DNA from: a phage
Strand: one strand, 5' to 3'
Sequence record: MZ956761.1
Length of the DNA: 64,000 nucleotides
Within the stretch, counting starts at the first letter, position 1. Every line of letters begins with the position of its first letter. Made by a program: the position numbers and the translations under genes. Below are positions 309-62,637 of this stretch, piece after piece. Under the pieces are notes generated by a model. It saw only the letters and a program-made list of their open reading frames with translations, was not told the DNA's origin and did no database searches.

Positions 309-337
309 TTTACTTTGCCACAAGGATGTGGTATAAT
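308..337 (+). promoter_or_regulatory. T4-type early promoter (-35 GTTTAC, extended -10 TGnTATAAT)
   Basis: GTTTAC 308-313, TATAAT 332-337; near-identical copy at 45318-45347. Confidence 0.6.
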
Positions 338-365
338 GTTCTTACTTTCTACTGAGGAGATTATT

Positions 366-4489: not shown

Positions 4490-4582
4490 ATGGCTTGAAA
4501 CTCAAATTTCTTTTTCTGACCGAATGATTCAGCAATATAAGCGATTGCATCAAATGTTTTACAATACTTGAAAATAATAAAT

Positions 4583-4607
4583 ACCCTTATCTATTTAAGG
4601 TAAGGGT
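4583..4607 (+). promoter_or_regulatory. RNA hairpin sequestering the gene 49 ribosome-binding site
   Basis: ACCCTTA (4583-4589) / TAAGGGT (4601-4607) inverted repeat, right arm contains the RBS 7 nt before ATG 4613; T4 gene 49 is known to be regulated this way. Confidence 0.55.
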
Positions 4608-4612
4608 TTATT

Positions 4613-5086
4613 ATGTTATTGACTGGCAAATTATATAAAGAAGAAAAACAGAAATTTTATGATGCACAAAACGGTAAATGTTTAATTTGCCAACGAGAAC
4701 TAAATCCTGATGTTCAAGCTAATCACCTTGACCATGACCATGAATTAAATGGACCAAAAGCAGGAAAGGTACGTGGATTGCTTTGTAATCTCTGCAATGC
4801 TGCAGAAGGTCAAATGAAGCATAAATTTAATCGTTCTGGCTTAAAGGGACAAGGTGTTGATTATCTTGAATGGTTAGAAAATTTACTCACTTATTTAAAA
4901 TCCGATTACACCCAAAATAATATTCACCCTAACTTTGTTGGAGATAAATCAAAGGAATTTTCTCGTTTAGGAAAAGAGGAAATGATGGCTGAGATGCTTC
5001 AAAGAGGATTTGAATATAATGAATCTGACACTAAAACACAATTAATAGCTTCATTTAAGAAGCAACTTAGAAAGAGTTTAAAATGA
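4613..5086 (+). CDS. 49: recombination endonuclease VII (Holliday-junction resolvase)
   Basis: 157 aa; CLIC...HLDHDHELNG...CNLCN zinc/HNH-like motif; matches recollection of T4 gp49. Confidence 0.9.
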   Translation: MLLTGKLYKEEKQKFYDAQNGKCLICQRELNPDVQANHLDHDHELNGPKAGKVRGLLCNLCNAAEGQMKHKFNRSGLKGQGVDYLEWLENLLTYLKSDYTQNNIHPNFVGDKSKEFSRLGKEEMMAEMLQRGFEYNESDTKTQLIASFKKQLRKSLK

Positions 5087-8766: not shown

Positions 8767-8967
8767 ATGAATCCTGAATCTAAATTATCGCAACGAATTG
8801 CTGAAGCTCGTCGTCAGTTCTTTGAAAATATGATAGCCCAAGGTATTGATGACGAAGTTTTTCTAAACTGGTTTTGGAATCACAAATATTCAAGTTGCTC
8901 AGGAGCAATATTAATATCAGCTGCAATGATGTACGAAGGCTGGAAGGGTGCCAAACAGTTTAGCTAA
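8767..8967 (+). CDS. hypothetical protein (66 aa)
   Basis: ORF followed by terminator hairpin. Confidence 0.45.
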   Translation: MNPESKLSQRIAEARRQFFENMIAQGIDDEVFLNWFWNHKYSSCSGAILISAAMMYEGWKGAKQFS

Positions 8968-8984
8968 GGGCTTCGGCCCTTTTT
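8966..8984 (+). terminator. intrinsic terminator-like hairpin (UUCG loop)
   Basis: AAGGGC-TTCG-GCCCTT-TTT. Confidence 0.6.
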
Positions 8985-9830: not shown

Positions 9831-9908
9831 CTAATATCCTCTATGCTTTAAGATAGATCTTCAAATATTATGATATAATAGATCTATGAATTGAGCTAAG
9901 AGGTGAAA

Positions 9909-11162: not shown

Positions 11163-11336
11163 ATGAACGCCCAGACTTGTGAAATAGATTATAATAAAAT
11201 TCGTTCCTCTAAAGTAGAAATGATGAGGCGCTTTAAAGAGTCTCATGATAAAGCTAAAGCAGAAGGAACTATAACATATAAGCGCATAAAATTTAGAAGC
11301 TCTAATGAGCCTCTGTATGGTGTATTATGCGGATAG
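11163..11336 (+). CDS. hypothetical protein (57 aa)
   Basis: ATG 11163 just after upstream stop; below ORF-track cutoff. Confidence 0.35.
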   Translation: MNAQTCEIDYNKIRSSKVEMMRRFKESHDKAKAEGTITYKRIKFRSSNEPLYGVLCG

Positions 11337-11350
11337 GAGCTTCGGCTCCT
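11335..11350 (+). terminator. UUCG-loop hairpin (terminator or RNA stability element)
   Basis: AGGAGC-TTCG-GCTCCT, no strong U tract. Confidence 0.4.
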
Positions 11351-11353
11351 ATA

Positions 11354-11402: not shown

Positions 11403-12605
11403 ATGAAAGTATGCATTTTTATGGCTCGAGGTCTTGAAGGTTGTGGTGTAACTAAATTTTCTCTTGAGCAACGTGATTGGTTTATTAAAAATGGTCATGA
11501 AGTAACTTTGGTTTATGCTAAAGATAAATCATTTACTCGTAACTGCGCGCACGATTATAAATCATTTTCAATTCCGGTTTTATTGGCAAAAGAATACGAT
11601 AAAACACTTAAGCTGGTAAATGATTGTGATATTCTAATTATCAATTCAGTTCCTGCTACTTCAGTTGAAGAAGACACTATTAATAACTATAAAAAAATTA
11701 TTGATAACATTAAACCTTCGGTTCGTGTTGTAGTTTATCAACATGACCATTCTTCTCTTTCTTTGCGACGAAATTTGGGATTAGAAGAAACTGTTCGTCG
11801 AGCTGATGTTATTTTTAGCCATTCTGATAATGGTGATTTTAATAAAGTTCTGATGAAAGAATGGTATCCAGAAACTGTTTCTCTGTTTGATGATATTGAA
11901 GAAGCGCCGACAGTATATAACTTTCAGCCTCCTATGGATATTGCGAAGGTTCGGTCAACCTACTGGAAAGATGTTTCTGAAATTAACATGAATGTCAACC
12001 GTTGGATTGGTCGTACGACTACATGGAAGGGTTTTTATCAGATGTTTGATTTTCACGAAAAACATCTTAAACCTGCAGGACTAAGTACTATTATGGAAGG
12101 TCTGGAACGTTCTCCAGCATTCATTCCTATTAAAGAAAAAGGAATTCCATACGAGTATTATCGTCTTCATCAAGTAGACCAAATTAAAATTGCTCCTAAT
12201 TTGCCAACGCAAATTCTTGACCGTTATGTAAATAGCGAAATGCTTGAGCGTATGAGTAAATCCGGATTTGGTTATCAGTTGAGTAAGTTGGATAAAAAAT
12301 ATCTACAACGTTCTTTAGAATATACTCATCTCGAGCTTGGTGCATGTGGAACAATTCCGGTATTTTGGAAATCTACTGGCGAAAATTTAAAATTCCGTGT
12401 TGATAATACTCCTTTGACCTCACATGATAGCGGTATCATTTGGTTTGATGAAAATGATATGGAATCAACATTCGAGCGTATTAAAGAACTGTCATCTGAC
12501 CGAGCTCTTTATGACCGTGAGCGAGAAAAAGCGTATGAATTTTTGTATCAGCATCAAGATTCAAGCTTCTGCTTTAAAGAACAGTTTGACATTATTACAA
12601 AATAA
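11403..12605 (+). CDS. a-gt: DNA alpha-glucosyltransferase
   Basis: 400 aa, same size and position (between 55 and 47) as T4 a-gt. Confidence 0.8.
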   Translation: MKVCIFMARGLEGCGVTKFSLEQRDWFIKNGHEVTLVYAKDKSFTRNCAHDYKSFSIPVLLAKEYDKTLKLVNDCDILIINSVPATSVEEDTINNYKKIIDNIKPSVRVVVYQHDHSSLSLRRNLGLEETVRRADVIFSHSDNGDFNKVLMKEWYPETVSLFDDIEEAPTVYNFQPPMDIAKVRSTYWKDVSEINMNVNRWIGRTTTWKGFYQMFDFHEKHLKPAGLSTIMEGLERSPAFIPIKEKGIPYEYYRLHQVDQIKIAPNLPTQILDRYVNSEMLERMSKSGFGYQLSKLDKKYLQRSLEYTHLELGACGTIPVFWKSTGENLKFRVDNTPLTSHDSGIIWFDENDMESTFERIKELSSDRALYDREREKAYEFLYQHQDSSFCFKEQFDIITK

Positions 12606-12620
12606 AGGGCTTCGGCCCTT
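12605..12620 (+). terminator. UUCG-loop hairpin after a-gt
   Basis: AAGGGC-TTCG-GCCCTT. Confidence 0.55.
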
Positions 12621-12644
12621 TAGCTTTATACGGAGTTTGATATA

Positions 12645-14248: not shown

Positions 14249-15933
14249 AGAATTTTAAACTAAACCGAGTTAGGTATCAAAATATAATGTCAGTAGGTGG
14301 AAATCCTATTGACATTCAACTAGATAAGGTTCAAAAAACTCTTATTACTGGACGAAATGGCGGTGGTAAGTCTACTATGTTAGAAGCCATCACATTTGGG
14401 CTTTTTGGCAAGCCATTTCGTGATGTAAAGAAAGGTCAATTAATAAACAGCACAAATAAGAAAGAACTTTTAGTTGAACTGTGGATGGAATATGATGAGA
14501 AAAAGTACTATATCAAAAGAGGACAAAAACCAAACGTTTTCGAAATCACCGTTAACGGTACACGTCTTAATGAATCTGCCAGCAGTAAAGATTTCCAAGC
14601 AGAATTTGAACAGCTTATCGGAATGTCATATGCCAGTTTCAAGCAGATTGTTGTCCTTGGTACAGCAGGGTATACCCCTTTCATGGGTTTGTCGACCCCT
14701 GCACGAAGAAAGCTTGTGGAAGACCTGCTCGAGGTAGGAACATTAGCTGAAATGGATAAGCTTAATAAAGCACTAATACGTGAATTAAATTCACAAAACC
14801 AAGTGCTTGATGTTAAAAAAGATAGTATTATCCAACAAATTAAAATATATAATGATAACGTTGAACGCCAGAAAAAATTAACTGGTGATAACCTTACTCG
14901 TCTACAGAATATGTATGATGATTTGGCAAAAGAAGCTAGAACGTTAAAATCGGAAATAGAAGAAGCTAATGAAAGATTAGTTAATATTGTTTTGGATGAA
15001 GACCCGACTGATGCATTTAATAAAATCGGTCAAGAAGCATTTTTAATTAAATCAAAAATTGACTCGTATAATAAAGTCATTAATATGTATCACGAAGGTG
15101 GATTATGTCCAACCTGTTTGTCACAATTAAGTTCCGGTGATAAAGTTGTTTCTAAAATTAAAGATAAAGTTTCTGAATGCACGCATTCGTTTGAACAGCT
15201 TTCAACNCNNCNNGNNNNNNNNNNAGTATNTCGTTNNTNANTNNNGNGATNNTNNNAANNNCNANNNGTNNGTTGCTTGCNNNTNNTNTGTNNCNNTNNA
15301 AANCANTNNNTNNNCACGACTGTAGATAAAGCTAAAANAGTTAAAGCAGCTATAGAANAAGCATCATCTGAGTTTATTGNCCATGCTGATNAAATNGCNC
15401 TGCTTNAAGANGAACTTGATAAAATTGTTAAGNCAAANACTAATTTNNTAATGGAAAAATNCCACNGAGGAATTTTGACTGATATGCTCAAAGATTCTGG
15501 TATTAANGGTGCTATTATTAAAAAGTACATTCCATTATTTAATAAGCAGATTAACCATTATCTTAAAATAATGGAAGCGGATTATGTGTTTACATTAGAT
15601 GAAGAATTTAATGAGACAATTAAATCCCGTGGTCGTGAAGATTTTAGTTATGCTTCATTCAGTCAAGGCGAAAAAGCACGAATTGATATTGCTCTTCTAT
15701 TTACTTGGCGTGATATTGCTGAAAAAGTTTCAGGTGTTAAAATAAACACACTAATTCTCGATGAAGTTTTTGATTCAGCAACTGATGTTGAAGGTGTAAA
15801 AGCTATTTCAACTATTTTAGATAGTTTAAAAAATACTAATGTTTTTGTTATTTCACATAGAGACCACGACCCGCAAGCATATGGTCAGCATCTTCAAATG
15901 AAGAAAGTTGGTCGATTTACTGTAATGGTTTAA
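14245..15933 (+). CDS. 46: recombination ATPase gp46 (Rad50/SbcC-like)
   Basis: 562 aa; Walker A GRNGGGKST; central part contains ambiguous bases. Confidence 0.85.
   Translation: MKNFKLNRVRYQNIMSVGGNPIDIQLDKVQKTLITGRNGGGKSTMLEAITFGLFGKPFRDVKKGQLINSTNKKELLVELWMEYDEKKYYIKRGQKPNVFEITVNGTRLNESASSKDFQAEFEQLIGMSYASFKQIVVLGTAGYTPFMGLSTPARRKLVEDLLEVGTLAEMDKLNKALIRELNSQNQVLDVKKDSIIQQIKIYNDNVERQKKLTGDNLTRLQNMYDDLAKEARTLKSEIEEANERLVNIVLDEDPTDAFNKIGQEAFLIKSKIDSYNKVINMYHEGGLCPTCLSQLSSGDKVVSKIKDKVSECTHSFEQLSXXXXXXXVXRXXXXXXXXXXXXXCLXXXCXXXXXXXXTTVDKAKXVKAAIEXASSEFIXHADXXXLLXXELDKIVKXXTNXXMEKXHXGILTDMLKDSGIXGAIIKKYIPLFNKQINHYLKIMEADYVFTLDEEFNETIKSRGREDFSYASFSQGEKARIDIALLFTWRDIAEKVSGVKINTLILDEVFDSATDVEGVKAISTILDSLKNTNVFVISHRDHDPQAYGQHLQMKKVGRFTVMV
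15207..15507. other. run of ambiguous bases (N) inside gene 46
   Basis: Scattered N characters in the sequence. Confidence 0.95.
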
Positions 15934-15939
15934 TTTATA

Positions 15940-15975
15940 AGAGATTATGCTTTAATTTATTAGAGTATAATCTCT
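15940..15975 (+). promoter_or_regulatory. hairpin-embedded -10 element (9-bp inverted repeat)
   Basis: AGAGATTAT 15940-15948 / ATAATCTCT 15967-15975, TATAAT 15966-15971. Confidence 0.4.
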
Positions 15976-17321: not shown

Positions 17322-17337
17322 AGGGCTTCGGCCCTTT
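17322..17337 (+). terminator. UUCG-loop hairpin after gene 45
   Basis: AGGGC-TTCG-GCCCTT. Confidence 0.5.
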
Positions 17338-19489: not shown

Positions 19490-19510
19490 AAGGGGCTTCG
19501 GCCCCTTATT
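19490..19510 (+). terminator. intrinsic terminator-like hairpin
   Basis: AAGGGGC-TTCG-GCCCCTT-ATTT. Confidence 0.6.
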
Positions 19511-19527
19511 TGGAGTATAATATATCA

Positions 19528-19568
19528 AGAGCCTAATAACTCGGGCTATAAACTAAGGAATATCTATG
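19528..19568 (+). promoter_or_regulatory. gene 43 translational operator (autoregulatory hairpin plus RBS)
   Basis: AGCC-UAAUAACUC-GGGCU hairpin then AAGGAA RBS and ATG; resembles recalled T4 operator. Confidence 0.5.
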
Positions 19569-22275: not shown

Positions 22276-22297
22276 GGGACCTCCGGGTCCCTTTTTC
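22276..22297 (+). terminator. intrinsic terminator after gene 43
   Basis: AGGGACC-TCCG-GGTCCCT-TTTT. Confidence 0.65.
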
Positions 22298-22378
22298 ATA
22301 CAAGTAATATAAATCTATACTTATGAAAAACAGATGATTCTGGACCTTTAGAATTCCCCAAAAAATTTTCACAAAACT

Positions 22379-22408
22379 GTTTACAAGACTGTTCTTCCAT
22401 GGTACTAT
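22379..22408 (+). promoter_or_regulatory. T4-type early promoter with conserved leader
   Basis: GTTTAC 22379-22384, TACTAT 22403-22408; leader to ATG identical to 49600-49644. Confidence 0.6.
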
Positions 22409-22442
22409 ACAACTATCAACTAATACGGATTTGGAGAATAAA

Positions 22443-22679
22443 ATGAAAATTGTTATGGGATGCTTAGCAGTTTGTTTAGTTGCATTAGCAGCTGTTCCAT
22501 TTATTGATATTGAAAATGATACTCAGAATGTGATTGAATCTAATACTGTTATTCACATGAATGGTAAAGTATCAACAAAAATTGATGATAATCTTCATAT
22601 GAATACTAATGGAACGCTGGGTGTTCAATTAGGTAATACCTGTGTAAGCACTACTGGAGTAATTACTACTTGTATTTGA
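22443..22679 (+). CDS. hypothetical secreted protein (78 aa)
   Basis: ATG 22443 with GGAG RBS; N-terminal signal-like hydrophobic segment. Confidence 0.5.
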   Translation: MKIVMGCLAVCLVALAAVPFIDIENDTQNVIESNTVIHMNGKVSTKIDDNLHMNTNGTLGVQLGNTCVSTTGVITTCI

Positions 22680-26667: not shown

Positions 26668-28095
26668 GTGGTAGAAATTATTCTTTCTCATCTCATATTT
26701 GATCAAGCTTATTTTTCAAAAGTTTGGCCATATATGGATTCAGAATATTTTGAAAGTGGTCCAGCTAAAAATACATTCAAATTAATTAAATCTCATGTTA
26801 ATGAGTACCATAGCGTTCCATCTATTAATGCGTTAAATGTTGCATTAGAAAATAGTTCATTTACTGAAACAGAATATTCTGGTGTAAAAACACTTATTTC
26901 AAAACTAGCTGATTCTCCGGAAGACCACAGTTGGTTAATAAAAGAAACAGAAAAATATGTTCAGCAAAGGGCGATGTTTAATGCTACGTCTAAAATAATC
27001 GAAATTCAAACTAATGCTGAGCTTCCTCCGGAAAAACGAAATAAGAAAATGCCGGACGTTGGTGCTATTCCTGACATCATGCGTCAAGCATTATCTATTT
27101 CATTTGATAGCTACGTTGGTCATGATTGGATGGATGACTACGAAGCACGCTGGCTATCTTATATGAATAAAGCTCGTAAAGTTCCATTTAAACTTCGTAT
27201 TTTGAATAAAATTACAAAAGGCGGAGCTGAAACAGGAACACTGAACGTTTTAATGGCTGGTGTTAACGTTGGTAAGTCATTAGGATTGTGTTCATTAGCA
27301 GCAGATTATTTGCAGCTCGGACATAATGTTCTTTACATTTCCATGGAAATGGCAGAAGAAGTTTGTGCTAAGCGTATTGACGCTAATATGCTTGATGTTT
27401 CTCTTGATGACATTGATGATGGGCATATTTCTTACGCTGAGTATAAAGGAAAAATGGAAAAATGGCGTGAGAAATCTACTCTCGGTCGTTTAATCGTTAA
27501 GCAATATCCCACTGGTGGAGCAGACGCTAATACATTTCGATCGCTTTTAAACGAATTGAAGCTCAAGAAGAATTTTGTTCCAACAATCATTATTGTTGAC
27601 TATCTAGGTATTTGTAAATCTTGCCGCATCAGAGTTTATTCAGAAAATAGTTACACAACTGTTAAAGCTATCGCAGAGGAATTGCGTGCTCTGGCTGTTG
27701 AAACCGAAACTGTTCTTTGGACTGCAGCGCAGGTTGGTAAGCAAGCTTGGGATTCTTCTGATGTTAACATGAGCGATATTGCAGAATCTGCCGGTCTTCC
27801 AGCAACAGCCGATTTTATGCTTGCGGTCATTGAAACCGAGGAGCTAGCAGCTGCTGAACAACAACTCATTAAGCAAATCAAATCACGATATGGTGATAAG
27901 AATAAATGGAATAAGTTTTTGATGGGTGTTCAAAAAGGAAATCAGAAATGGGTAGAAATTGAACAAGATTCTACTCCAACTGAAGTAAGTGAAGTAGCAG
28001 GTTCACAGCAGATTCAGGCTGAACAGAATCGCTATCAAAGAAACGAATCTGCTCGAGCCCAGTTAGATGCTTTAGCGAATGAATTAAAATTTTAG
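26668..28095 (+). CDS. 41: replicative DNA helicase gp41
   Basis: 475 aa; GTG start; Walker A GVNVGKS; N-terminus MVEIILSHLIFDQAYF as recalled for T4. Confidence 0.9.
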   Translation: MVEIILSHLIFDQAYFSKVWPYMDSEYFESGPAKNTFKLIKSHVNEYHSVPSINALNVALENSSFTETEYSGVKTLISKLADSPEDHSWLIKETEKYVQQRAMFNATSKIIEIQTNAELPPEKRNKKMPDVGAIPDIMRQALSISFDSYVGHDWMDDYEARWLSYMNKARKVPFKLRILNKITKGGAETGTLNVLMAGVNVGKSLGLCSLAADYLQLGHNVLYISMEMAEEVCAKRIDANMLDVSLDDIDDGHISYAEYKGKMEKWREKSTLGRLIVKQYPTGGADANTFRSLLNELKLKKNFVPTIIIVDYLGICKSCRIRVYSENSYTTVKAIAEELRALAVETETVLWTAAQVGKQAWDSSDVNMSDIAESAGLPATADFMLAVIETEELAAAEQQLIKQIKSRYGDKNKWNKFLMGVQKGNQKWVEIEQDSTPTEVSEVAGSQQIQAEQNRYQRNESARAQLDALANELKF

Positions 28096-28132
28096 TTTAC
28101 AAGCCGACAAGACTATGGTATAGTAGTCTTGT
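28095..28132 (+). promoter_or_regulatory. early promoter embedded in inverted repeat
   Basis: GTTTAC 28095-28100, TATAGT 28119-28124, arms ACAAGACTA 28107-28115 / TAGTCTTGT 28124-28132. Confidence 0.55.
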
Positions 28133-28153
28133 TGGTTAAATGAGGAGATTGTT

Positions 28154-28336
28154 ATGGAATTGGTAAAGGTAGTTTTTATGGGGTGGTTTAAGAACGAAAG
28201 CATGTTTACTAAAGAAATCACAATGATGAAAGATGACGTTCAATGGGCTACTAATCAATATGCTGAAGTTAATAAAGCACTAGTTAAAGCTTTCATTGAT
28301 GACAAGAAAGTATGCGAAGTGGATTGCCGAGGATAA
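28154..28336 (+). CDS. dmd: Dmd antitoxin (inhibitor of RnlA/LsoA)
   Basis: 60 aa; sequence agrees with my recollection of T4 Dmd; adjacent to gene 41. Confidence 0.8.
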   Translation: MELVKVVFMGWFKNESMFTKEITMMKDDVQWATNQYAEVNKALVKAFIDDKKVCEVDCRG

Positions 28337-28337
28337 T

Positions 28338-28595
28338 ATGCATATCGTTTTATTTAAACCTACTCCGTATAACGTCAGGAAAAATACTCAATTCAAAGCA
28401 CTTATCGCAGATACGTGGGAATTGGTATTAGATATTCCAGCAGAAGAAAGCCCTCCATTTGGTCGAGTGGAATTTATTAAGTTTGCTGTGCGCCCTACAA
28501 AGCGGCAGATTCGCCAATGCAAAAGATACTTTCGTAAAATCGTCAAGTTAGAGAAACAGTTTGTAACATGTGATTATACAGAAGTTTTAAAATAG
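28338..28595 (+). CDS. 61.4-position protein, possibly TifA-like
   Basis: 85 aa, ATG 28338 coupled to dmd stop; name by position only. Confidence 0.45.
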   Translation: MHIVLFKPTPYNVRKNTQFKALIADTWELVLDIPAEESPPFGRVEFIKFAVRPTKRQIRQCKRYFRKIVKLEKQFVTCDYTEVLK

Positions 28596-28597
28596 CT

Positions 28598-28640
28598 GTT
28601 TACAAGCTGATAGAGTTGTGTTATAGTAATTCTATCAGCT
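28598..28640 (+). promoter_or_regulatory. early promoter embedded in 10-bp perfect inverted repeat
   Basis: GTTTAC 28598-28603, TATAGT 28622-28627, arms AGCTGATAGA 28605-28614 / TCTATCAGCT 28631-28640. Confidence 0.6.
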
Positions 28641-28658
28641 AATCGCGGAGAAAAGAAA

Positions 28659-28913
28659 ATGATGCTAGTTAATAGAGAATATCAGTTTAAATCAGAAGAA
28701 GATTTGGAAAAATTCGCGAGTGGTTGTGAACTGAATAGACGCACAGCTAAAGTCATAGGATTAAAACCCTTTACAGTTCTAGATTGTGAAGTTTCTAAAT
28801 TCCGCAGAGGGTGTTCTATTAGCGGTCATGCTCTGGTTGATGGGAACACATTTTTCTTTGTTTTTAGCGTCAGAGAACTTTTATTGATTAACGAACTTGA
28901 GGAAATAAAATAG
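28659..28913 (+). CDS. hypothetical protein (84 aa)
   Basis: ORF with GGAG RBS, own promoter-hairpin upstream. Confidence 0.5.
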   Translation: MMLVNREYQFKSEEDLEKFASGCELNRRTAKVIGLKPFTVLDCEVSKFRRGCSISGHALVDGNTFFFVFSVRELLLINELEEIK

Positions 28914-28958
28914 TTTACTTTTGTTTTAAACATGTTATTATAGACTTATCAAAACAAA
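28913..28958 (+). promoter_or_regulatory. early promoter embedded in 8-bp inverted repeat
   Basis: GTTTAC 28913-28918, TATTAT 28936-28941, arms TTTGTTTT 28920-28927 / AAAACAAA 28951-28958. Confidence 0.55.
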
Positions 28959-28977
28959 CGAGTAAATGGAGAACAAA

Positions 28978-29160
28978 ATGTCTAAAGTATCAGGTTATCA
29001 ATTATTAACACAAGAACAACGTTCAGAGATGGATTCTTTACAAGAACGGTGTCAGCATAGAAATAACGCACTTGATTCATTTTTATTAGTTGAATATGAA
29101 AACTTGTGCTCTAGACTTGAAAAAGAATATGTTCATCAACATGAAGGAGGAGAAGAATGA
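28978..29160 (+). CDS. hypothetical protein (60 aa)
   Basis: ATG 28978 after GGAG RBS. Confidence 0.45.
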   Translation: MSKVSGYQLLTQEQRSEMDSLQERCQHRNNALDSFLLVEYENLCSRLEKEYVHQHEGGEE

Positions 29161-29234
29161 AACTGAAATCACCAATTATTGCAATTTGTCTGTTTGCTTC
29201 TACTAGTGTTTACTTTTGTTGAAAATTGAGATAC

Positions 29235-29242
29235 TATAAATA
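29235..29242 (+). promoter_or_regulatory. T4 late promoter TATAAATA
   Basis: Exact TATAAATA about 22 nt upstream of the sp start. Confidence 0.6.
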
Positions 29243-29263
29243 TAAACTACTGAGGAGATTATC

Positions 29264-29557
29264 ATGAAAAAATTTGTTTTTGCTGCAATTTTTGCTTTGG
29301 CTTCTTGTACTGCTCAGCCTGCTATGGCGGGTTATGATAAAGATTTGTGTGAATGGTCTATGACTGCAGATCAGACTGAGGTTGAAACTCAAATTGAAGC
29401 AGATATTATGAATATCGTTGAGCGTGATCGTCCTGAAATGAAAGCTGAAGTGCAAAAACAGCTTAAGTCTGGTGGTGTAATGCAGTATAATTATGTTCTG
29501 TATTGCGATAAAAACTTTAATAATAAAAATATCATCGCTGAAGTGGTAGGTGAGTAA
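29264..29557 (+). CDS. sp: Spackle (Sp), periplasmic superinfection-exclusion protein
   Basis: 97 aa with signal peptide; sequence agrees with my recollection of T4 Sp. Confidence 0.75.
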   Translation: MKKFVFAAIFALASCTAQPAMAGYDKDLCEWSMTADQTEVETQIEADIMNIVERDRPEMKAEVQKQLKSGGVMQYNYVLYCDKNFNNKNIIAEVVGE

Positions 29558-29569
29558 TTAGAGGTTAGT

Positions 29570-29926
29570 ATGTATAGTTCTGAATTTTCATATTTAAAAA
29601 TGGAAAAAATTTCATACGATTTTATAGATGAAAAGGTTTATTACAGCTTCCATGAACCACGTTTTAATAGTGAGGTTGGGTTTATTGTAGTAAAAGACAA
29701 TTTCATTTTAAAAATATATTCGGCATTAAAGGATTTTCACTACGAAAATATTAACCTAAAATTTGATAAAGAAAACGTTCGTAATTGTGCAGTAACAATT
29801 ACAGGAAATAAAGGTACATGCGTTATGCTATCTGATGAAATTAATGATTTGCTAAATGATGCCGAAAAGGTTGTTGTTCCATCGATTGATGACCAAATTT
29901 TTAATGCTTTTATGAATAGAGGTTAA
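29570..29926 (+). CDS. hypothetical protein (118 aa)
   Basis: ORF. Confidence 0.5.
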   Translation: MYSSEFSYLKMEKISYDFIDEKVYYSFHEPRFNSEVGFIVVKDNFILKIYSALKDFHYENINLKFDKENVRNCAVTITGNKGTCVMLSDEINDLLNDAEKVVVPSIDDQIFNAFMNRG

Positions 29927-29927
29927 T

Positions 29928-30092
29928 ATGAAAACATATAAAGAATTTATTAAAGAAGATATGGTCGCTGGAGATTCAGGTGGTAATCCTGAAAATATCT
30001 CCACTGGAACAACGTCAGGCGCTGTAGTAAATAAAGGTCCTGAACAGATTCCTAAAAAGAAAAAAGAGGAATCTAAAGAAAAAGAAGAGTAA
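29928..30092 (+). CDS. hypothetical Lys/Glu-rich protein (54 aa)
   Basis: ATG 29928 after upstream stop; below ORF-track cutoff. Confidence 0.4.
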   Translation: MKTYKEFIKEDMVAGDSGGNPENISTGTTSGAVVNKGPEQIPKKKKEESKEKEE

Positions 30093-30094
30093 AA

Positions 30095-31123
30095 ATGTCA
30101 TCAATACCTTGGATTGATAATGAGTTTGCATACCGTGCATTAGCTCATTTACCTAAATTCGCACAAGTAAATAATAGTTCAACTTTTAAATTACGGTTTA
30201 GATGTCCTGTTTGTGGAGATTCAAAAACCGATCAAAATAAAGCCCGTGGATGGTATTATGGTGATAATAATGAAGGAAATATTCATTGTTATAACTGTAA
30301 CTATCATGCACCAATCGGAATATATTTAAAGGAGTTTGAACCTGATTTATATCGTGAGTATATCTTTGAAATAAGAAAAGAAAAAGGTAAAAGTCGTCCA
30401 GTAGAAAAACCTAAAGAACTTCCTAAACAACCTGAGAAGAAAATAATTAAATCTCTTCCGTCATGCATTAGATTAGATAAACTGGCGGAAGACCATCCAA
30501 TTATAAAATATGTAAAAGCTCGTTGTATTCCAAAGGATAAATGGAAATATCTTTGGTTTACAACTGAATGGCCTAAATTAGTTAATAGCATAGCACCCGG
30601 AACATATAAAAAGGAAATACCTGAGCCTCGTCTTGTTATTCCAATTTATAATGCTAATGGAAAAGCTGAGTCTTTTCAAGGACGTGCATTAAAGAAAGAT
30701 GCTCCTCAAAAATATATCACCATCAAAGCTTATCCCGAGGCAACAAAAATCTATGGAGTCGAACGAGTCAAAGATGGTGATGTATATGTTCTAGAAGGAC
30801 CTATAGATTCACTTTTTATTGAAAATGGTATAGCTATTACGGGTGGTCAATTAGACCTAGAAGTTGTTCCATTTAAAGATAGACGTGTGTGGGTCTTAGA
30901 TAATGAACCTCGTCACCCTGACACTATTAAACGAATGACTAAATTAGTTGATGCAGGAGAAAGGGTTATGTTTTGGGATAAATCTCCCTGGAAATCAAAA
31001 GATGTTAATGATATGATTAGAAAGGAAGGTGCAACCCCTGAACAAATTATGGAATATATGAAAAATAATATTGCCCAAGGGTTGATGGCTAAAATGCGGC
31101 TATCTAAATATGCTAAGATTTAA
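30095..31123 (+). CDS. 61: DNA primase gp61
   Basis: 342 aa; zinc ribbon CPVCGD...CYNC and TOPRIM-like core. Confidence 0.9.
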   Translation: MSSIPWIDNEFAYRALAHLPKFAQVNNSSTFKLRFRCPVCGDSKTDQNKARGWYYGDNNEGNIHCYNCNYHAPIGIYLKEFEPDLYREYIFEIRKEKGKSRPVEKPKELPKQPEKKIIKSLPSCIRLDKLAEDHPIIKYVKARCIPKDKWKYLWFTTEWPKLVNSIAPGTYKKEIPEPRLVIPIYNANGKAESFQGRALKKDAPQKYITIKAYPEATKIYGVERVKDGDVYVLEGPIDSLFIENGIAITGGQLDLEVVPFKDRRVWVLDNEPRHPDTIKRMTKLVDAGERVMFWDKSPWKSKDVNDMIRKEGATPEQIMEYMKNNIAQGLMAKMRLSKYAKI

Positions 31124-32113: not shown

Positions 32114-32319
32114 AATTTGATTTTTATGCATGGCAAAAAGCCGGGCGACCGGCTAGTCGAGCATTTGGTTCTGATGGATATAATATTAGAGCCCATTGGA
32201 AGTTTAATGCTCCAGCCGATTATTCTCCGGTAATTATTAACGGTGATGTTGTTATATTAACTAAAATTGGGTATTTTAACGTTCCGCAAGAATTTATTAT
32301 AAATAGTCATGTAATTTAA
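32110..32319 (+). CDS. hypothetical protein (69 aa)
   Basis: ATGA-coupled ORF. Confidence 0.45.
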   Translation: MKFDFYAWQKAGRPASRAFGSDGYNIRAHWKFNAPADYSPVIINGDVVILTKIGYFNVPQEFIINSHVI

Positions 32320-32335
32320 ATAAAAGGAGAATTAC

Positions 32336-32581
32336 ATGGCTAGTACTCGCGGTTATGTTAATATTAAAACATTTGAGCAAAAATTAGATGGAAATAAGAA
32401 AATTGAAGGAAAGGAAATTTCTGTAGCTTTCCCTCTTTATTCTGACGTTCACAAAATTTCTGGTGCTCATTACCAGACATTCCCTTCAGAAAAAGCAGCA
32501 TATTCTACAGTATATGAAGAAAATCAACGTGATGCATGGATTACTGCAAACGAAGATTTGTGGAAAGTAACTGGTGAATAA
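32336..32581 (+). CDS. soc: small outer capsid protein Soc
   Basis: 81 codons; sequence agrees with my recollection of T4 Soc. Confidence 0.85.
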   Translation: MASTRGYVNIKTFEQKLDGNKKIEGKEISVAFPLYSDVHKISGAHYQTFPSEKAAYSTVYEENQRDAWITANEDLWKVTGE

Positions 32582-33230: not shown

Positions 33231-33716
33231 ATGGAAGCGATTTTGTTTGAAATGTATATTAGCAGTAATAGTTTGTCGTTTGCTAAAGACGTTCCAATTA
33301 CCGTAGCGGTAATGATTGATAAGGGTTATTGTGACCCAATGTATCTCGTAGAAAATTTCGTTTCAATGCCAGTTCCAGAAGATGCTGAAATAAAACTTAA
33401 AAAGATTGGTATTATTGAAACTGTACCAAATATTCCATTTAGAGCAATTGAAGCATTTACTAAATCAGAATACATTAATGTTAACACAGAAAAATATAAT
33501 GATGAACCTTTATCTTTTTATTCGTACGATTCAGTATATAGTTGGAAAATAGATAAAGGAAATAAATTTATAATTGTGGACGAAGATGCTTTATCATACT
33601 TTATTTCTTCTGTATGGAATAGTTTACATCCAAATTTGCTAAAAATTCATGAATTTGATGATGCTCCTACTGTTGTTTTAGGTAAAACAAATGAAAGTTC
33701 TGAAGAAAATGCTTGA
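33231..33716 (+). CDS. hypothetical protein (161 aa), possibly Mrh by size and position
   Basis: ATG 33231 with GAGG RBS. Confidence 0.45.
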
Positions 33717-34720: not shown

Positions 34721-34779
34721 GTTTACTTTCCTTCCTAACAATGATATGATAGCTTCTGAAGTATACGGAGGCTATCATG
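34721..34779 (+). promoter_or_regulatory. early promoter plus inverted repeat overlapping the modB start codon
   Basis: GTTTAC 34721-34726, TATGAT 34745-34750; arms ATGATAGC 34748-34755 / GCTATCAT 34771-34778. Confidence 0.45.
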
Positions 34780-35400
34780 ATTATTAATCTTGCAGATGTT
34801 GAACAGTTATCTATAAAAGCTGAAAGCGTCGATTTTCAATATGATATGTATAAAAAGGTCTGTGAAAAATTTACTGACTTTGAACAGTCAGTTCTTTGGC
34901 AATGTATGGAAGCCAAAAAGAATGAAGCTCTTCATCAGCAGTTGAATAAAATCGTTAAAAAGCATTTAACTAAATCACCTTATCAGCTATATCGTGGTAT
35001 ATCAAAATCGACAAAAGAACTCATTAAAGATTTACAAGTCGGAGAAGTGTTTTCAACGAACAGAGTAGATTCATTTACTACTAGTTTGCATACAGCGTGT
35101 TCTTTTTCTTATGCCGAATATTTCACTGACACAATACTTCGCTTAAAAACTGATAAAGCTTTTAATTACTCTGACCATATCAGCGATATTATACTTTCTT
35201 CTCCTAATACTGAGTTTAAGTATACATATGAAGATACTGATGGATTAGATTCAGAACGTACTGATAACTTAATGATGATTGTACGTGAACAAGAATGGAT
35301 GATTCCAATTGGAAAGTATAAAATAACTTTTATTTCAAAAGAAAAATTACACGATTCGTTTGGAACATTTAAAGTGTATGATATTGAGGTAGTTGAATGA
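34777..35400 (+). CDS. modB: ADP-ribosyltransferase ModB
   Basis: 207 aa; R (LYRG), S-T (FSTN), EQE motifs of R-S-E ARTs; size and position as T4 ModB. Confidence 0.75.
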   Translation: MIINLADVEQLSIKAESVDFQYDMYKKVCEKFTDFEQSVLWQCMEAKKNEALHQQLNKIVKKHLTKSPYQLYRGISKSTKELIKDLQVGEVFSTNRVDSFTTSLHTACSFSYAEYFTDTILRLKTDKAFNYSDHISDIILSSPNTEFKYTYEDTDGLDSERTDNLMMIVREQEWMIPIGKYKITFISKEKLHDSFGTFKVYDIEVVE

Positions 35401-39914: not shown

Positions 39915-39944
39915 GTTTACTTCCTCGGTTAGTTGTGGTATTAT
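39915..39944 (+). promoter_or_regulatory. T4-type early promoter
   Basis: GTTTAC 39915-39920, TATTAT 39939-39944. Confidence 0.55.
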
Positions 39945-39971
39945 AACACCATAGCTACTGAGGATAATAAA

Positions 39972-41017: not shown

Positions 41018-41046
41018 TAGTTTACAAACTCTTGGGACCAGAGTAT
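41011..41046 (+). promoter_or_regulatory. early promoter with -10 in hairpin loop
   Basis: GTTTAC 41011-41016, TATAAT 41035-41040, arms GGGACC 41025-41030 / GGTCCC 41041-41046. Confidence 0.55.
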
Positions 41047-41093
41047 AATGGTCCCGTGGAGTATAAAATCTTTTTAACAAGTGAGAGATAACT

Positions 41094-41591: not shown

Positions 41592-41621
41592 AGTTTAAAA
41601 TTTTTCATAAAACTATATACA

Positions 41622-41663
41622 TCAGTAGTTGATTATGGTACTATATCAATATCAACTACTGAT
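41622..41663 (+). repeat. 13-bp perfect inverted repeat around a promoter-like loop
   Basis: ATCAGTAGTTGAT 41622-41634 / ATCAACTACTGAT 41651-41663. Confidence 0.6.
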
Positions 41664-41687
41664 ACAGAAAATAACTTGGAGAATAAA

Positions 41688-41957
41688 ATGGAAAACTTAA
41701 TTATCATCGAGCAATCTTTCAATGATTATGGTATGGCTTATGGTTATCGTGCGATAATGGAAGATTCTCGTGGATGTGTTATCGATATTGCTGAATGTAA
41801 AGATTTACTGCAGCTTTTGAAGATTGTTCGTAAAAATTGGGATTGTGAAAACATTAAAGCTCGTGTTGTAACGGAAGAAGAAACTGTTTTTCATGATGTA
41901 AAATTCGCTAAAGGTGCTGCTACTCTTCTGAAACGTATCGCTCCACTGTTTAATTAA
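41688..41957 (+). CDS. hypothetical protein (89 aa)
   Basis: ATG 41688 with GGAG RBS. Confidence 0.45.
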   Translation: MENLIIIEQSFNDYGMAYGYRAIMEDSRGCVIDIAECKDLLQLLKIVRKNWDCENIKARVVTEEETVFHDVKFAKGAATLLKRIAPLFN

Positions 41958-43164: not shown

Positions 43165-43430
43165 AAATTATGAAATATATTAATCGTTCTATCGCAGCAT
43201 TAGTATTAGCAGTGTCTTTAGCAGGATGTACTGATGCTGATAATGCAACCAAAGTTTTGTCTTCAAGTGGTTTTACTAATATTGAAATCACTGGATACAA
43301 TTGGTTTGGTTGCTCTGAAAATGATTTCCAACACACTGGATTTCGTGCTATTGGACCTACCGGGCAGAAAGTAGAAGGAACAGTATGTTCTGGTCTATTC
43401 TTCAAGGATTCGACTATCCGTTTTAAATAA
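43161..43430 (+). CDS. putative lipoprotein (89 aa)
   Basis: Signal peptide with lipobox LAGC. Confidence 0.5.
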   Translation: MKIMKYINRSIAALVLAVSLAGCTDADNATKVLSSSGFTNIEITGYNWFGCSENDFQHTGFRAIGPTGQKVEGTVCSGLFFKDSTIRFK

Positions 43431-43447
43431 AAGGCCTTCGGGCCTTT
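43431..43447 (+). terminator. UUCG-loop hairpin
   Basis: AAGGCC-TTCG-GGCCTT. Confidence 0.5.
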
Positions 43448-45317: not shown

Positions 45318-45347
45318 TTTACTTTACCACAAGGATGTGGTATAATT
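45318..45347 (+). promoter_or_regulatory. T4-type early promoter (duplicate of 308-337)
   Basis: GTTTAC 45318-45323, TATAAT 45342-45347. Confidence 0.6.
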
Positions 45348-47774: not shown

Positions 47775-48713
47775 ATGTACAATATTAAATGCCTGACCAA
47801 AAACGAACAAGCTGAAATTGTTAAACTGTATTCAAGTGGTAATTACACCCAACAGGAATTGGCTTATTGGAAGGATGTATCGGTTGATACAATCCGTCGT
47901 GTTTTGAAAAATGCTGAAGAAGCTAAACGCCCTAAAGTTACTATTAGCGGTGATATTACAGTTAAAGTTAATAGCGATGCAGTTATTGCTCCAGTTGCTA
48001 AATCTGACATTATTTGGAATGCATCTAAAAAATTCATTTCAATTACTGTTGACGGTGTAACTTATAACGCAACTCCTAATACTCATTCAAACTTCCAGGA
48101 AATTCTTAATCTGCTTGTAGCAGATAAGTTGGAAGAAGCGGCACAAAAAATTAATGTTCGTCGCGCTGTTGAAAAATATATTTCCGGCGATGTTCGAATT
48201 GAAGGCGGAAGCTTGTTCTATCAAAATATCGAATTACGGTCTGGTTTAGTTGATCGTATTCTCGATTCGATGGAAAAAGGTGAAAACTTTGAATTTTATT
48301 TTCCGTTCTTGGAAAATCTGCTGGAAAACCCAAGCCAGAAAGCGGTATCTCGACTCTTTGATTTCTTGGTAGCAAACGATATTGAAATTACAGAAGATGG
48401 TTACTTCTATGCTTGGAAAGTAGTTCGTGACAACTACTTTGACTGTCACTCAAACACCTTTGATAACAGTCCTGGTAAAGTAGTTAAAATGCCGCGTACT
48501 CGTGTGAATGACGATGATACACAAACTTGTTCTCGTGGTCTGCATGTGTGTTCTAAATCTTATATTCGTCACTTTGGCAGTTCAACCAGCCGAGTTGTAA
48601 AAGTTAAAGTACATCCACGTGATGTAGTATCAATTCCGATTGATTACAACGATGCTAAAATGCGTACCTGCCAATACGAAGTAGTTGAAGACGTTACTGA
48701 ACAATTTAAATAA
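47775..48713 (+). CDS. rIIB: rIIB protein
   Basis: 312 aa, same as T4 rIIB; synteny. Confidence 0.85.
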   Translation: MYNIKCLTKNEQAEIVKLYSSGNYTQQELAYWKDVSVDTIRRVLKNAEEAKRPKVTISGDITVKVNSDAVIAPVAKSDIIWNASKKFISITVDGVTYNATPNTHSNFQEILNLLVADKLEEAAQKINVRRAVEKYISGDVRIEGGSLFYQNIELRSGLVDRILDSMEKGENFEFYFPFLENLLENPSQKAVSRLFDFLVANDIEITEDGYFYAWKVVRDNYFDCHSNTFDNSPGKVVKMPRTRVNDDDTQTCSRGLHVCSKSYIRHFGSSTSRVVKVKVHPRDVVSIPIDYNDAKMRTCQYEVVEDVTEQFK

Positions 48714-48726
48714 GGGCTTCGGCCCT
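48711..48726 (+). terminator. UUCG-loop hairpin after rIIB
   Basis: AAGGGC-TTCG-GCCCTT. Confidence 0.55.
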
Positions 48727-48745
48727 TATCATATTAAGGAAAATT

Positions 48746-48940: not shown

Positions 48941-48944
48941 AATA

Positions 48945-48967
48945 AGGGCTTCGGCCCTTTTGTTTTA
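48945..48967 (+). terminator. intrinsic terminator
   Basis: AAGGGC-TTCG-GCCCTT-TTGTTTT. Confidence 0.6.
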
Positions 48968-49577: not shown

Positions 49578-49608
49578 GTTTACATACCACAAGGACCGTG
49601 GTACTATA
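49578..49608 (+). promoter_or_regulatory. T4-type early promoter with conserved leader
   Basis: GTTTAC 49578-49583, TACTAT 49603-49608; leader identical to 22401-22445. Confidence 0.6.
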
Positions 49609-49641
49609 CAACTATCAACTAATACGGATTTGGAGAATAAA

Positions 49642-49848
49642 ATGTTTACTACAGCTGAATTAAAACGAGCAAAAGCTAAGAAAGGGCAAGGGAAATATAA
49701 AGCTGAACTAGTTAAAGAACTTCAATTTGCTGAGGCTGAGTTGAATTCGATGATTATTCAAAATGCTCCAGAAACTGAAATTGCTCTTAAACGTATTGCG
49801 AATAAGTGTCTTCGTGATGCAATCGTTGATCTTTTAGCGGATTATTGA
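49642..49848 (+). CDS. hypothetical protein (68 aa)
   Basis: ATG 49642 with GGAG RBS. Confidence 0.45.
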   Translation: MFTTAELKRAKAKKGQGKYKAELVKELQFAEAELNSMIIQNAPETEIALKRIANKCLRDAIVDLLADY

Positions 49849-50302: not shown

Positions 50303-50332
50303 GTTTACAAGACTGTTCCTCTGTGGTATTAT
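50303..50332 (+). promoter_or_regulatory. T4-type early promoter
   Basis: GTTTAC 50303-50308, TATTAT 50327-50332; first 16 nt identical to promoter 22379. Confidence 0.55.
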
Positions 50333-50360
50333 TACCCTATCAACTACGGAGGAACAGAAA

Positions 50361-51529: not shown

Positions 51530-51609
51530 TGAGTAATTTCCATAACGAACATGTGATGCAGTTCTATCGTAACAATCTTAAAACCAAAGGCGTCTTCGGA
51601 CGCCAGTGA
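51529..51609 (+). CDS. stp: Stp peptide (activator of host PrrC anticodon nuclease)
   Basis: 26-aa [29 protein letters not shown], as I recall T4 Stp. Confidence 0.75.
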
Positions 51610-51782: not shown

Positions 51783-51941
51783 ATGAATATCGCAAAATTA
51801 TTAGGAGTTATTTCATTTATTTGTTGGATAGTAGCATGTGTTTTAACTATCTGTATCGATGCTAGCAGTGTGTTTTCACAAGCTTTAGCNCAGGGTATGT
51901 GTNNATATTTNANNTTTGTGTTGTTATCTNCTAATGNTTAA
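51783..51941 (+). CDS. hypothetical membrane protein, 3' end obscured by N run
   Basis: ATG 51783 with GAGGAG RBS; stop position uncertain. Confidence 0.25.
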   Translation: MNIAKLLGVISFICWIVACVLTICIDASSVFSQALXQGMCXYXXFVLLSXNX

Positions 51942-52041
51942 GAAAATCTTNGGCTANTCANTANCCCNTGCTACTTTANTGGTAGCACTANANTANGGAG
52001 TAANGNTCNGANTAANTCAAGTCGTGCNTTTCATTTCNGAN
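51890..52041. other. run of ambiguous bases (N) upstream of gene 52
   Basis: Scattered N characters. Confidence 0.95.
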
Positions 52042-53557: not shown

Positions 53558-53590
53558 AGGGAGAGCCTCGGCTCTCCCTTTTTTATTTCA
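53558..53590 (+). terminator. intrinsic terminator
   Basis: GGGAGAGCC-TCG-GCTCTCCC-TTTTTTATTT. Confidence 0.7.
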
Positions 53591-53609: not shown

Positions 53610-53639
53610 GTTTACAACCAAAGCATACTGTGGTACTAT
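53610..53639 (+). promoter_or_regulatory. T4-type early promoter for motA
   Basis: GTTTAC 53610-53615, TACTAT 53634-53639. Confidence 0.6.
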
Positions 53640-53680
53640 ACAACTATCAACTACTGATACAGAATTACGGAGATTAGAAA

Positions 53681-62610: not shown

Positions 62611-62632
62611 AAAAGGGAGCCCGAAGGCTCCC
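62611..62632 (-). terminator. intrinsic terminator after gene 35
   Basis: On - strand GGGAGCC-TTCG-GGCTCCC-TTTTTCTTT. Confidence 0.65.
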
Positions 62633-62637
62633 TCAAT

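Follow-up and report, generated by a model that had tools for sequence, protein, structure and literature searches.

PeSL-type promoter cassettes in a T4-like phage genome, with hairpins predicted to fold in read-through RNA

The promoter-early stem-loop (PeSL) of T4-type phages was defined in RB49 and phi1 as a stem-loop lying between the -35 and -10 elements or overlapping the -10, and the motifs, which recombine to mini-circles, are concentrated beside ORFans and indels (Arbiol 2010, PMC2839356). PeSLs were subsequently extended to T4/PST, with stems of the form 'AGNA-loop-TCNT' and ndd.4/.5 as the example, and middle-promoter versions (PmSLs) were described in vibriophage nt-1 (Comeau 2014, PMC4122927), so that the motif has been described for RB49/phi1, T4/PST and KVP40/nt-1. 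In a second known system, comprising the T4 genes e, soc, 49 and I-TevI, the long read-through RNA folds a helix, and transcripts from an internal promoter lack its 5' strand (PMC3014915). We consider here a 64,000-nt stretch of phage sequence record MZ956761.1 (the window), and in particular the early promoter and inverted repeat at 28598-28640, together with similar elements elsewhere in the window. The arrangement is already known, being the published PeSL architecture of T4-type phages. What is added to it is the preservation of sense-strand pairing, covariation in the motB hairpin, the absence of U-runs, and four hairpins that bury a Shine-Dalgarno (SD) sequence.

Every sequence-level feature that defines a PeSL is found in the window: an intergenic early promoter of the sigma-70 type (-35 and -10 some 17 nt apart); a stem-loop between these two elements, over one of them or just outside, which is seen at 7-9 of 20 promoters including the focal one and is lacking at 11-12; mutually similar cassettes dispersed through plastic regions; and gain or loss of small open reading frames (ORFs) with junctions inside the cassette (GTTTAC or GTTTACTTTTGTT). 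As in PeSLs, an upstream stop codon in an A/T-rich tract is followed by early promoter, stem-loop, SD and AUG, the stems contain G-T pairs, and the units are repeated around the genome beside small variable ORFs; the published ndd.x example region itself lies in the window. The stems differ in being A/U- and G·U-rich with no U-run, whereas those of RB49 read GGGG...CCCC, and terminator activity here is therefore doubtful. The most probable reading, to which we assign a probability of about 0.8, is that these elements are PeSL-type cassettes with a sense-strand hairpin present only in read-through RNA, and that they double as crossover points. Computation and comparison underlie the promoter and structural parts of this reading; its functional consequences are inferred.

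The association between promoter and hairpin is real and non-random, and it is far from systematic, involving some 40% of early promoters. Promoters were collected with a rule blind to repeats (GTTTAC[AT], N16-18, TAnnnT with at most two mismatches), which yields 19 sites on the + strand and none on the - strand, with 0.5 expected; the matches agree with the T4/PST consensus TTTACW-N17-TAYWAT (PMC4122927). A looser rule (one mismatch in the -35, two in the -10) gave 75 matches versus 54 expected and was dropped in favor of the strict one. When 53 nt per promoter, from the spacer to about +24, were folded and compared with 2232 tiled control segments at a cut-off of -14 kcal/mol, a hairpin at least that stable was present at 7/19 early promoters (309, 28096, 28599, 34722, 39916, 41021 and 50304) versus 2.9% of controls, a 13-fold excess (binomial p = 7e-7). 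For overlap with repeats, 41616 was added to the rule-based set; 9/20 promoters have their -10 within a perfect repeat whose arms reach 7 bp or more, versus 11.4% of all positions (p = 1.6e-4), and 6/20 have it within one whose arms reach 8 bp or more, versus 4.0% (p = 9e-5). These figures stand against a considerable background, in which perfect repeats of 6-7 bp are common by themselves: with loops of 3-30 nt the window holds 699 repeats with arms of at least 6 bp and 69 with arms of at least 8, compared with 519 +/- 25 and 40 +/- 5 in dinucleotide shuffles. Intergenic DNA, 4.8% of the window, contains 11 of those 69 (3.3 expected). Nothing notable was found at promoters 4016, 8106, 8545, 22380, 29209, 32623, 36057, 53611 and 56076, and by a Mann-Whitney test the z-scores of promoters did not differ significantly from those of random segments (p = 0.25), the z distribution being bimodal and the signal lying in its tail.

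A sequence-only reading of the window had named six perfect inverted repeats that enclose early-promoter -10 elements (sites 1-6 in Table 1). All six are present, although the interval given for site 4, 41025-41046, covers only a 5-bp ACTCT/AGAGT; a better repeat there is the 7-bp core listed in Table 1. The -10 hexamer does lie within the loop or right arm at each site, with GTTTAC 17 nt upstream of it (16 nt at site 3) except at site 6 (ATATACA) and site 5. The early-promoter label fits the sigma-70 type of the other sites but not site 5, where a perfect MotA box TGCTTTA (15948-15954) is followed after 11 nt by the -10 TATAAT (15966-15971). Hinton's table of mapped T4 middle promoters places the P45.2 start at 33257, which corresponds to ~15978 in the window once the +11 to +15 shift common to P43, P45 and P45.2 relative to T4T coordinates is applied, and this is the predicted +1 of site 5. 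The MotA box and the match to mapped P45.2 thus identify site 5 as a middle promoter. At site 3 the hairpin is no better than chance (-4.1 kcal/mol, z = +0.13), and in the homologous cassette that precedes motA in Mosigvirus ATK47 the repeat is interrupted. The same region carries an antisense sigma-70-like match (28966-28937 on the - strand; TTTACT, N18, TATAAT), which could be a chance mirror of an A/T-rich promoter or a weak antisense promoter. Better examples than some of the six were absent from that list, namely the hairpins of modB, motB.2, the ndd.x region, nrdC.4, rIIA.1 and P55.

Table 1. Promoters, inverted repeats and associated features (window coordinates)
Feature	Position	Strand	Description
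Focal early promoter of ORF 28659-28913	28598-28627	+	-35 GTTTACA, 17-nt spacer, TGT-TATAGT; -10 at 28622-28627
Focal hairpin (site 2)	28605-28640	+	perfect AGCTGATAGA/TCTATCAGCT, 10-bp arms, 16-nt loop; 14 bp with sense-strand G·U pairs; -10 in loop
dmd early promoter	28095-28124	+	GTTTACA, N17, TGG-TATAGT; kept in T4T, T2, RB3, HY01
dmd-promoter hairpin	28102-28137	+	15 bp; -21.8 kcal/mol, z -5.0
Perfect core of dmd hairpin (site 1)	28107-28132		9-bp arms, 8-nt loop
Early promoter of ORF 28978-29160	28913-28958	+	GTTTACT, N16, TGT-TATTAT; with A/T-only 8-bp repeat
Site 3 repeat	28920-28958		8-bp arms, 23-nt loop
sp early promoter	29208-29237	+	GTTTACT, N17, TACTAT; no hairpin
motB early promoter	41020-41049	+	GTTTACA, N17, TATAAT; 'promoter' in phage Lutter record
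motB-promoter hairpin (site 4)	41028-41062	+	core GGGACCA/TGGTCCC 41034-41055; -10 in loop and right arm; z -4.1
P45.2 repeat (site 5)	15940-15975	+	9-bp arms, 18-nt loop
Promoter of variable ORF 41688-41957	41616-41663	+	TATACA, N17, TGG-TACTAT; 13-bp hairpin
Site 6 repeat	41621-41663		13-bp arms, 17-nt loop
P55 repeat	9853-9887	+	8-bp perfect ATAGATCT/AGATCTAT enclosing -10 TATAAT 9874-9879 of gene 55 middle promoter
modB early promoter with hairpin	34722-34785	+	perfect core 34746-34778
motB.2 early promoter with hairpin	39916-39964	+	17-bp hairpin 39922-39964
Early promoter, ndd.x small-ORF region	50304-50357	+	15-bp hairpin 50313-50357
nrdC.4 early promoter	309-363	+	two hairpins, 316-333 and 334-363
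Early promoter upstream of rIIA.1	45318-45346	+	TACCACAaggaTGTGGTA hairpin 45325-45342 between -35 and -10; repeat family D5
Two accessory ORFs	28659-29160	+	28659-28913 (84 aa, ORF84); 28978-29160 (60 aa, ORF60)
13-bp direct repeat GTTTACTTTTGTT	28913-28925, 29208-29220	+	-35 and spacer start; copies bracket ORF60 cassette; T4/RB3 indel junctions here

According to the intergenic listing, the common module consists of a stop codon, an A/T-rich tract (AAAAATTTTCACAAAGTT), GTTTACA or GTTTACT and a 17-nt spacer, followed, often after TGn, by the -10, about 6 nt, a leader beginning A-TCAACTAC, and SD plus ATG. The A/T-rich tract is UP-like, and the conserved leader that precedes SD and AUG is short (AUCAACUAC...). 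The +1 was assigned to the first A of the leader because the conserved sequence begins there. Copies of this leader, (TGG)TACTATACAACT-ATCAACTAC..., start at the predicted +1 at 22403-22445, 41639-41669, 49602-49644, 50327-50357 and 53634-53664; between those at 22397-22445 and 49596-49644 the identity is 98% across 49 nt, SD and ATG included, and the same leader occurs in Mosigvirus and Gaprivervirus promoters.

Folding of read-through versus promoter-proximal RNA separates the two kinds of transcript. Segments that include upstream sequence fold strongly (z -3.1 to -6.5), and the same regions beginning at the predicted +1, which lies 3' of the left arm at every site, are unstructured (z -1.5 to +2.75). 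Two geometries are distinguished. The first has the hairpin ending at +1 or earlier, so that the promoter's own RNA has neither arm; to this class belong the dmd, motB, P45.2 and P55 hairpins and the thrice-repeated CCACAAGGA(N)GTGG at 316-333, 45325-45342 and 49585-49603. The dmd hairpin is essentially upstream of its predicted +1 (~28131) and therefore exists only in RNA reading through from gene 41, the P45.2 hairpin is wholly upstream of its start, and the first nrdC.4 hairpin (CCACAAGGATGTGG) lies between -35 and -10. Near P55 a second consensus MotA box (TGCTTTA, 9844-9850) stands 23 nt upstream of the gene 55 middle-promoter -10, which suggests tandem gene 55 middle promoters.

In the second geometry, the left arm lies in the spacer or -10 and the right arm in the leader. 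The right arm may stop short of the SD, as in the focal hairpin, where it straddles the predicted +1 (A28634, leader AUCAGCUAA...) and leaves the SD GCGGAG at 28645-28650 outside; this hairpin folds at -20.4 kcal/mol on the + strand (z -3.1) and -13.1 on the - strand, and the promoter-initiated RNA has z +0.77. The site 6 hairpin is of the same kind, its right arm being the conserved leader AUCAACUACUGAU, which starts at +1 (z -6.1). At four promoters the right arm includes the SD. In the modB hairpin the left arm overlaps the -10 (TATGAT) and the right arm holds both the SD GGAGG and the AUG (read-through z -6.5, promoter-initiated z +2.75), the motB.2 and ndd.x-region right arms contain the SDs GAGGA (z -5.7) and GGAGG (z -5.2), and the second nrdC.4 hairpin pairs -10-proximal sequence with the SD GAGGAG. 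The earlier proposal, that promoter-initiated transcripts lack the left arm and read-through transcripts fold, giving a structural switch, holds in silico to the extent that the two RNAs fold differently, but sites 1, 4 and 5 lose both arms and so have no two-state leader. At all six listed sites, moreover, the SD lies 5-15 nt past the stem and SD and start codon are uncovered; what is switched therefore stays undefined in that account.

Comparison among relatives bears on whether these structures are maintained. The alignments comprised T4T, T2, RB3, HY01, G4498 and IMG/VR relatives, of which there were only 5-7, and the phage collection of GenBank supplied further relatives. Because their perfect cores are lengthened by G·U pairs, the seven strong hairpins are all favored on the + strand, by 4-10 kcal/mol; asymmetry alone is weak evidence, since stable controls are also asymmetric, and substitution types were used instead. 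In the main stems, 15 different single substitutions were recorded over five hairpins, 13 counted automatically and two taken by inspection from the motB sequences (C to T at uv11, A to G at uv13): ten change a Watson-Crick pair to G·U, five change G·U to Watson-Crick, and none produces a mismatch. All seven in the dmd hairpin are among those that preserve pairing. At unpaired positions of the same regions the transitions divide into 4 (C>T/A>G) versus 6 (G>A/T>C), a distribution that differs from that in stems (Fisher p = 0.011; binomial p = 0.001 for 10/10). The observed stem changes would give A·C mismatches on the opposite strand.

The motB hairpin exists in two types, GGGACCA-N8-TGGTCCC in T4 and GAGAGCCAT-N6-ATGGCTCTC in Dhakavirus MX01, dhaeg and IME08 and also in RB51 and teqhad, which differ on both sides at four pairs (A-T to G-C, G-C to A-T, G-C to A-T, T·G to G-C); the pairs were counted from the invariant TATAAT, as the MAFFT alignment of the two types misplaced a gap. 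Furthermore, Mosigvirus G2469 and AV111 and Gaprivervirus VR7 arrive at the same hairpin designs from unrelated sequences, one of which buries the SD (TCTCCAGTAGTTG...CAACTACTGGAGA), and in VR7 the -35 (GTGTACA) lies in the loop of AAAGGGGG...CCCCCTTT. Together, the pairing-preserving substitutions, the motB covariation and the independent designs argue that the structure is selected, and that selection acts at the RNA level, on the transcribed sense strand.

These comparisons also bear on two other explanations. The hairpins could be functionless by-products, that is, chance repeats in A/T-rich DNA, helped by the partly self-complementary TGGTATA/TATAGT core and copied along with the cassettes. 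Arms of 6-8 bp are abundant by chance, site 3 is at chance level and not conserved, and cassette duplication could spread a hairpin without selection, as the CCACAAGGATGTGG copies show. This account is nevertheless very hard to reconcile with the 13-fold excess of strong hairpins at promoters, with stem substitutions that all preserve pairing, with a motB hairpin changed on both sides at four pairs, and with the same geometry built from independent sequences in Mosigvirus, Gaprivervirus and Dhakavirus. Alternatively, the repeats might act as DNA, either as cruciforms or single-strand hairpins that tune promoter melting or supercoil sensitivity, or as targets of recombination or operator proteins. 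The cores are indeed perfect palindromes able to fold on either strand, and PeSL crossovers in RB49 mapped to the loop, with a stem-specific DNA-binding protein being speculated upon (PMC2839356). A role as DNA is nonetheless improbable, given that the G·U extension of the stems occurs on the sense strand only, that every substitution preserves pairing on that strand and would mismatch on the other, and that crossovers here fall at the -35 and spacer start rather than in stems. Arm sequences vary from site to site, so that there is no common protein site; an operator or repressor-site reading was rejected because the arms share no sequence, which makes a common operator protein unlikely.

The proposed role of the cassettes as crossover points derives from the 61.4-sp interval, which holds the focal site, between 61.4 and ORF84. 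Escherichia phage ADUt (OQ466432.1), a Tequatrovirus, matches the region 27500-30500 at 100% identity, and hundreds of T4-like phages match it at 95-98%. For the 28.6-29.2 kb stretch it is borne out that the elements adjoin accessory ORFs: ORF84 and ORF60 are both absent from T4, RB3 and G4498 carry only ORF84, and ADUt has both. Correspondingly, most Tequatroviruses, T4 included, cover 57% of 27900-29300, and RB3 and G4498 cover 80%. In T4 the order is 61.4, promoter, sp, and the junction runs from ...AACTGTTTAC into TTTTGTTGGAAATTGAGATACTAT (sp); in ADUt it runs from ...AGCTGTTTAC into AAGCTGATAGAG (ORF84), and in RB3 the ORF84-sp junction joins GTTTACTTTTGTT to AGAAATTGAG. The ORF84/ORF60 indel junctions thus lie exactly at GTTTAC(TTTTGTT), and the second copy of the 13-bp direct repeat lies within the sp early promoter. 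As DNA, the cassettes would serve as crossover points at which promoter-plus-ORF modules are inserted or deleted, as seen in this interval.

The largest dispersed direct repeats in 1-57000 are promoter cassettes of 32-73 nt (families D1, D2, D3, D5 and D7); in the intergenic listing family D1 (AAAAATTTTCACAAAGTTGTTTACA...) has a stop codon in the A/T-rich tract on its 5' side and SD plus start codon on its 3' side, and the TACCACAaggaTGTGGTA motif upstream of rIIA.1 recurs at 316-333 and 49585-49603. Resemblances extend beyond the genus. Mosigvirus and Dhakavirus carry, upstream of motA, sequence that matches the site 3 cassette at 80-86% identity, and a dmd-type hairpin (GGACTATAGTATAGTAGTCC) lies upstream of sp in Mosigvirus. 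There (L019 3388-3450, L020 3389-3451) the sequence GGACTAT(A/G)GTATAGTAGTCC resembles the Tequatrovirus dmd hairpin GACTATGGTATAGTAGTC; a dmd-like hairpin before a different gene is consistent with movement of cassettes between loci.

Several points weigh against the reading of these elements as PeSL-type cassettes with read-through hairpins. Most early promoters, 11-12 of 19-20, have no notable hairpin, so the hairpin is dispensable for promoter function, and the earlier claim that -10 elements are 'systematically' embedded in repeats is too strong. The comparative sample is small (~10 distinct genomes, 15 substitutions), and a strand asymmetry of at least 4 kcal/mol is also found in 54% of stable control segments, making the asymmetry partly a selection effect. 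In the legend of the 2014 PST/T4 figure the stem-loops stand 'just upstream' of the promoter, whereas those described here extend across the -10. Promoter-mediated exchange does not account for all nearby indels: the 89-aa ORF 41688-41957 between motB and cef is intact in ADUt, with an ORF of the same length annotated there in RB3 and T2, and in T4 (T4T segment L018 6470-6639) only a stub of it remains after loss of internal sequence between ATGGAAAA and ATGTAAAA, at ATG(G/T)AAAA microhomology. T4 has kept the hairpin-bearing promoter of this deleted ORF, now facing cef. A search of the literature yielded no mapped 5' or 3' ends at these sites. Finally, U-runs are absent downstream of the promoter hairpins (the 8 nt that follow contain 0-4 T) and a terminator scan of 27900-29400 gave 0 matches, so that the 'terminator' half of the PeSL definition is unsupported by sequence for the T-even elements.

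This last point bears most directly on the literal PeSL 'composite terminator/promoter', in which the hairpins would be genuine factor-independent terminators and each cassette would close the upstream transcription unit and open another. The hairpins do stand directly after stop codons, and in RB49 one PeSL stem-loop reduced expression of lacZ to the same degree as rrnB T1 (PMC2839356), that single G/C-rich stem-loop being the only one for which terminator activity was tested experimentally. Lacking U-runs and scan matches, having A/U- and G·U-rich stems with loops of 8-17 nt, and coexisting with a separate G/C-rich UUCG-tetraloop class in the window, two members of which have T5-6 runs, the promoter hairpins are unlikely to be such terminators, and the published 'terminator' label appears questionable for T-even PeSLs. 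An intrinsic (Rho-independent) terminator reading was rejected in that the G/C-rich stem, short loop and U-run were not found.

The separate family consists of G/C-rich hairpins with a UUCG or similar tetraloop after stop codons (repeat families D6, D8 and D9), at 8966-8981, 11333-11352, 12603-12622, 17322-17337, 19490-19507, 43430-43447, 48710-48729, 48944-48959, 51589-51604, 53558-53580 and 62614-62633(-). Those at 48944 and 53558 are followed by the T5-6 runs, and several are directly followed by a MotA-box middle promoter. We take them to be the classical T4 intercistronic UUCG-tetraloop hairpins that Tuerk et al. reportedly described in 1988. Like the promoter hairpins, they are intergenic RNA hairpins after stop codons, often with a promoter directly 3' (11333, 12603, 17322, 19490, 43430 and 53560), but they differ in their short G/C-rich stem, 4-nt loop, frequent U-run and position upstream of the promoter rather than around the -10. 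They look like the real terminators or stabilisers. Rfam gave no family match anywhere in the window.

With the hairpins read as structures of read-through RNA, a mechanism can be proposed. The spacer is under almost no promoter constraint, and in ~40% of modules it has evolved complementarity to sequence just downstream. The host sigma-70 RNA polymerase would start ~7 nt after the -10, so that, judging from geometry and folding, the promoter's own mRNA should lack the 5' arm and have an open leader. RNA from upstream promoters would hold both arms and fold the stable hairpin, as folding in silico and the comparative evidence for sense-strand selection suggest. Where the hairpin ends before +1 (dmd, motB, P45.2 and the CCACAAGGATGTGG type), it may form the 3'-terminal structure of the upstream cistron, a boundary that could attenuate or pause read-through or shield the upstream message from 3' exonucleases. 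Where the 3' arm includes SD or AUG (modB, motB.2, the ndd.x-region hairpin and nrdC.4), translation of the downstream ORF from read-through RNA would be blocked, by analogy with T4 e, soc, 49 and I-TevI.

In those T4 genes, as here, the promoter lies in the 5' strand of the helix and its transcripts lack that strand, and the helices of modB, motB.2, the ndd.x region and nrdC.4 likewise hold SD or AUG. The differences are that promoters here are sigma-70 early or MotA middle rather than gp55 late (TATAAATA), and that SD and AUG lie outside the helix at the focal and five other listed sites. The repeat scan that found the present hairpins also recovered those of gene 49 (4574-4614; AUG buried, late-promoter-like AATAAATA in the 5' strand) and soc (32308-32338; SD and AUG buried), which thus serve as positive controls. 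The literature search found no explicit description of SD-burying hairpins at the early promoters of modB, motB.2, nrdC.4 and 50313-50357. Site 5 (P45.2) and the P55 repeat resemble the nt-1 PmSLs in that a MotA-box middle promoter is enclosed by a stem-loop; PmSLs were described for nt-1 and apparently not listed for T-even phages (PMC4122927). A further hairpin in the window, GAGCCTAATAACTCGGGCT at 19530-19550 upstream of gene 43, matches the known gp43 translational operator hairpin with its UAAC loop (PMC3014915).

The window corresponds to ADUt 13984-77983, and T4 early and middle genes are transcribed along its + strand. With gene names transferred from T4T and RB3, the order on that strand is nrdC.x ... 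55 ... 46, 45, 43 ... uvsX, 41, dmd, 61.x, 61 ... modB/A, dda, dexA, motB, 39, rIIA/B, ndd, motA. There are 98 N characters, in 15206-15507 (inside gene 46) and in 51889-52041 (the ac/ndd-side small-ORF region), which may be ambiguous base calls or masking. A minus-strand ORF at 22296-22400 that overlaps an early promoter is probably spurious. Name transfer seems to have gone wrong for many products in the ADUt record, with 'thioredoxin' assigned to nrdC.x ORFs, 'molybdenum ABC transporter' to modA.2-.4, and 'tail tube protein' or 'head completion protein' to small early ORFs.

As stated, the finding is a rediscovery of a published architecture and carries little weight as a discovery. It is of use in annotation, since in T4-like genomes the cassettes, which go without annotation in records such as ADUt, show where true early and middle promoters lie, where one cistron gives way to the next and where recombination joints are likely. 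More tentatively, many of the 17-nt spacers of T-even early and middle promoters might constitute a built-in 'anti-leader/anti-SD' strand that provides genome-wide translational insulation according to promoter of origin; this is a possibility that we regard as rather doubtful, and the literature search found no explicit description of such insulation in T-even early promoters. If it were true, which promoter made the RNA would decide whether a small early cistron is translated and its upstream neighbor's mRNA capped, and the late-gene switch of e, soc and 49 would be extended to sigma-70 early promoters (modB, motB.2, nrdC.4 and the ndd.x ORFs). Taken with the sense-strand selection, the SD-burying subset raises the question of whether in T4 toxic early proteins such as ModB are translated only from transcripts of their own immediate-early promoter.

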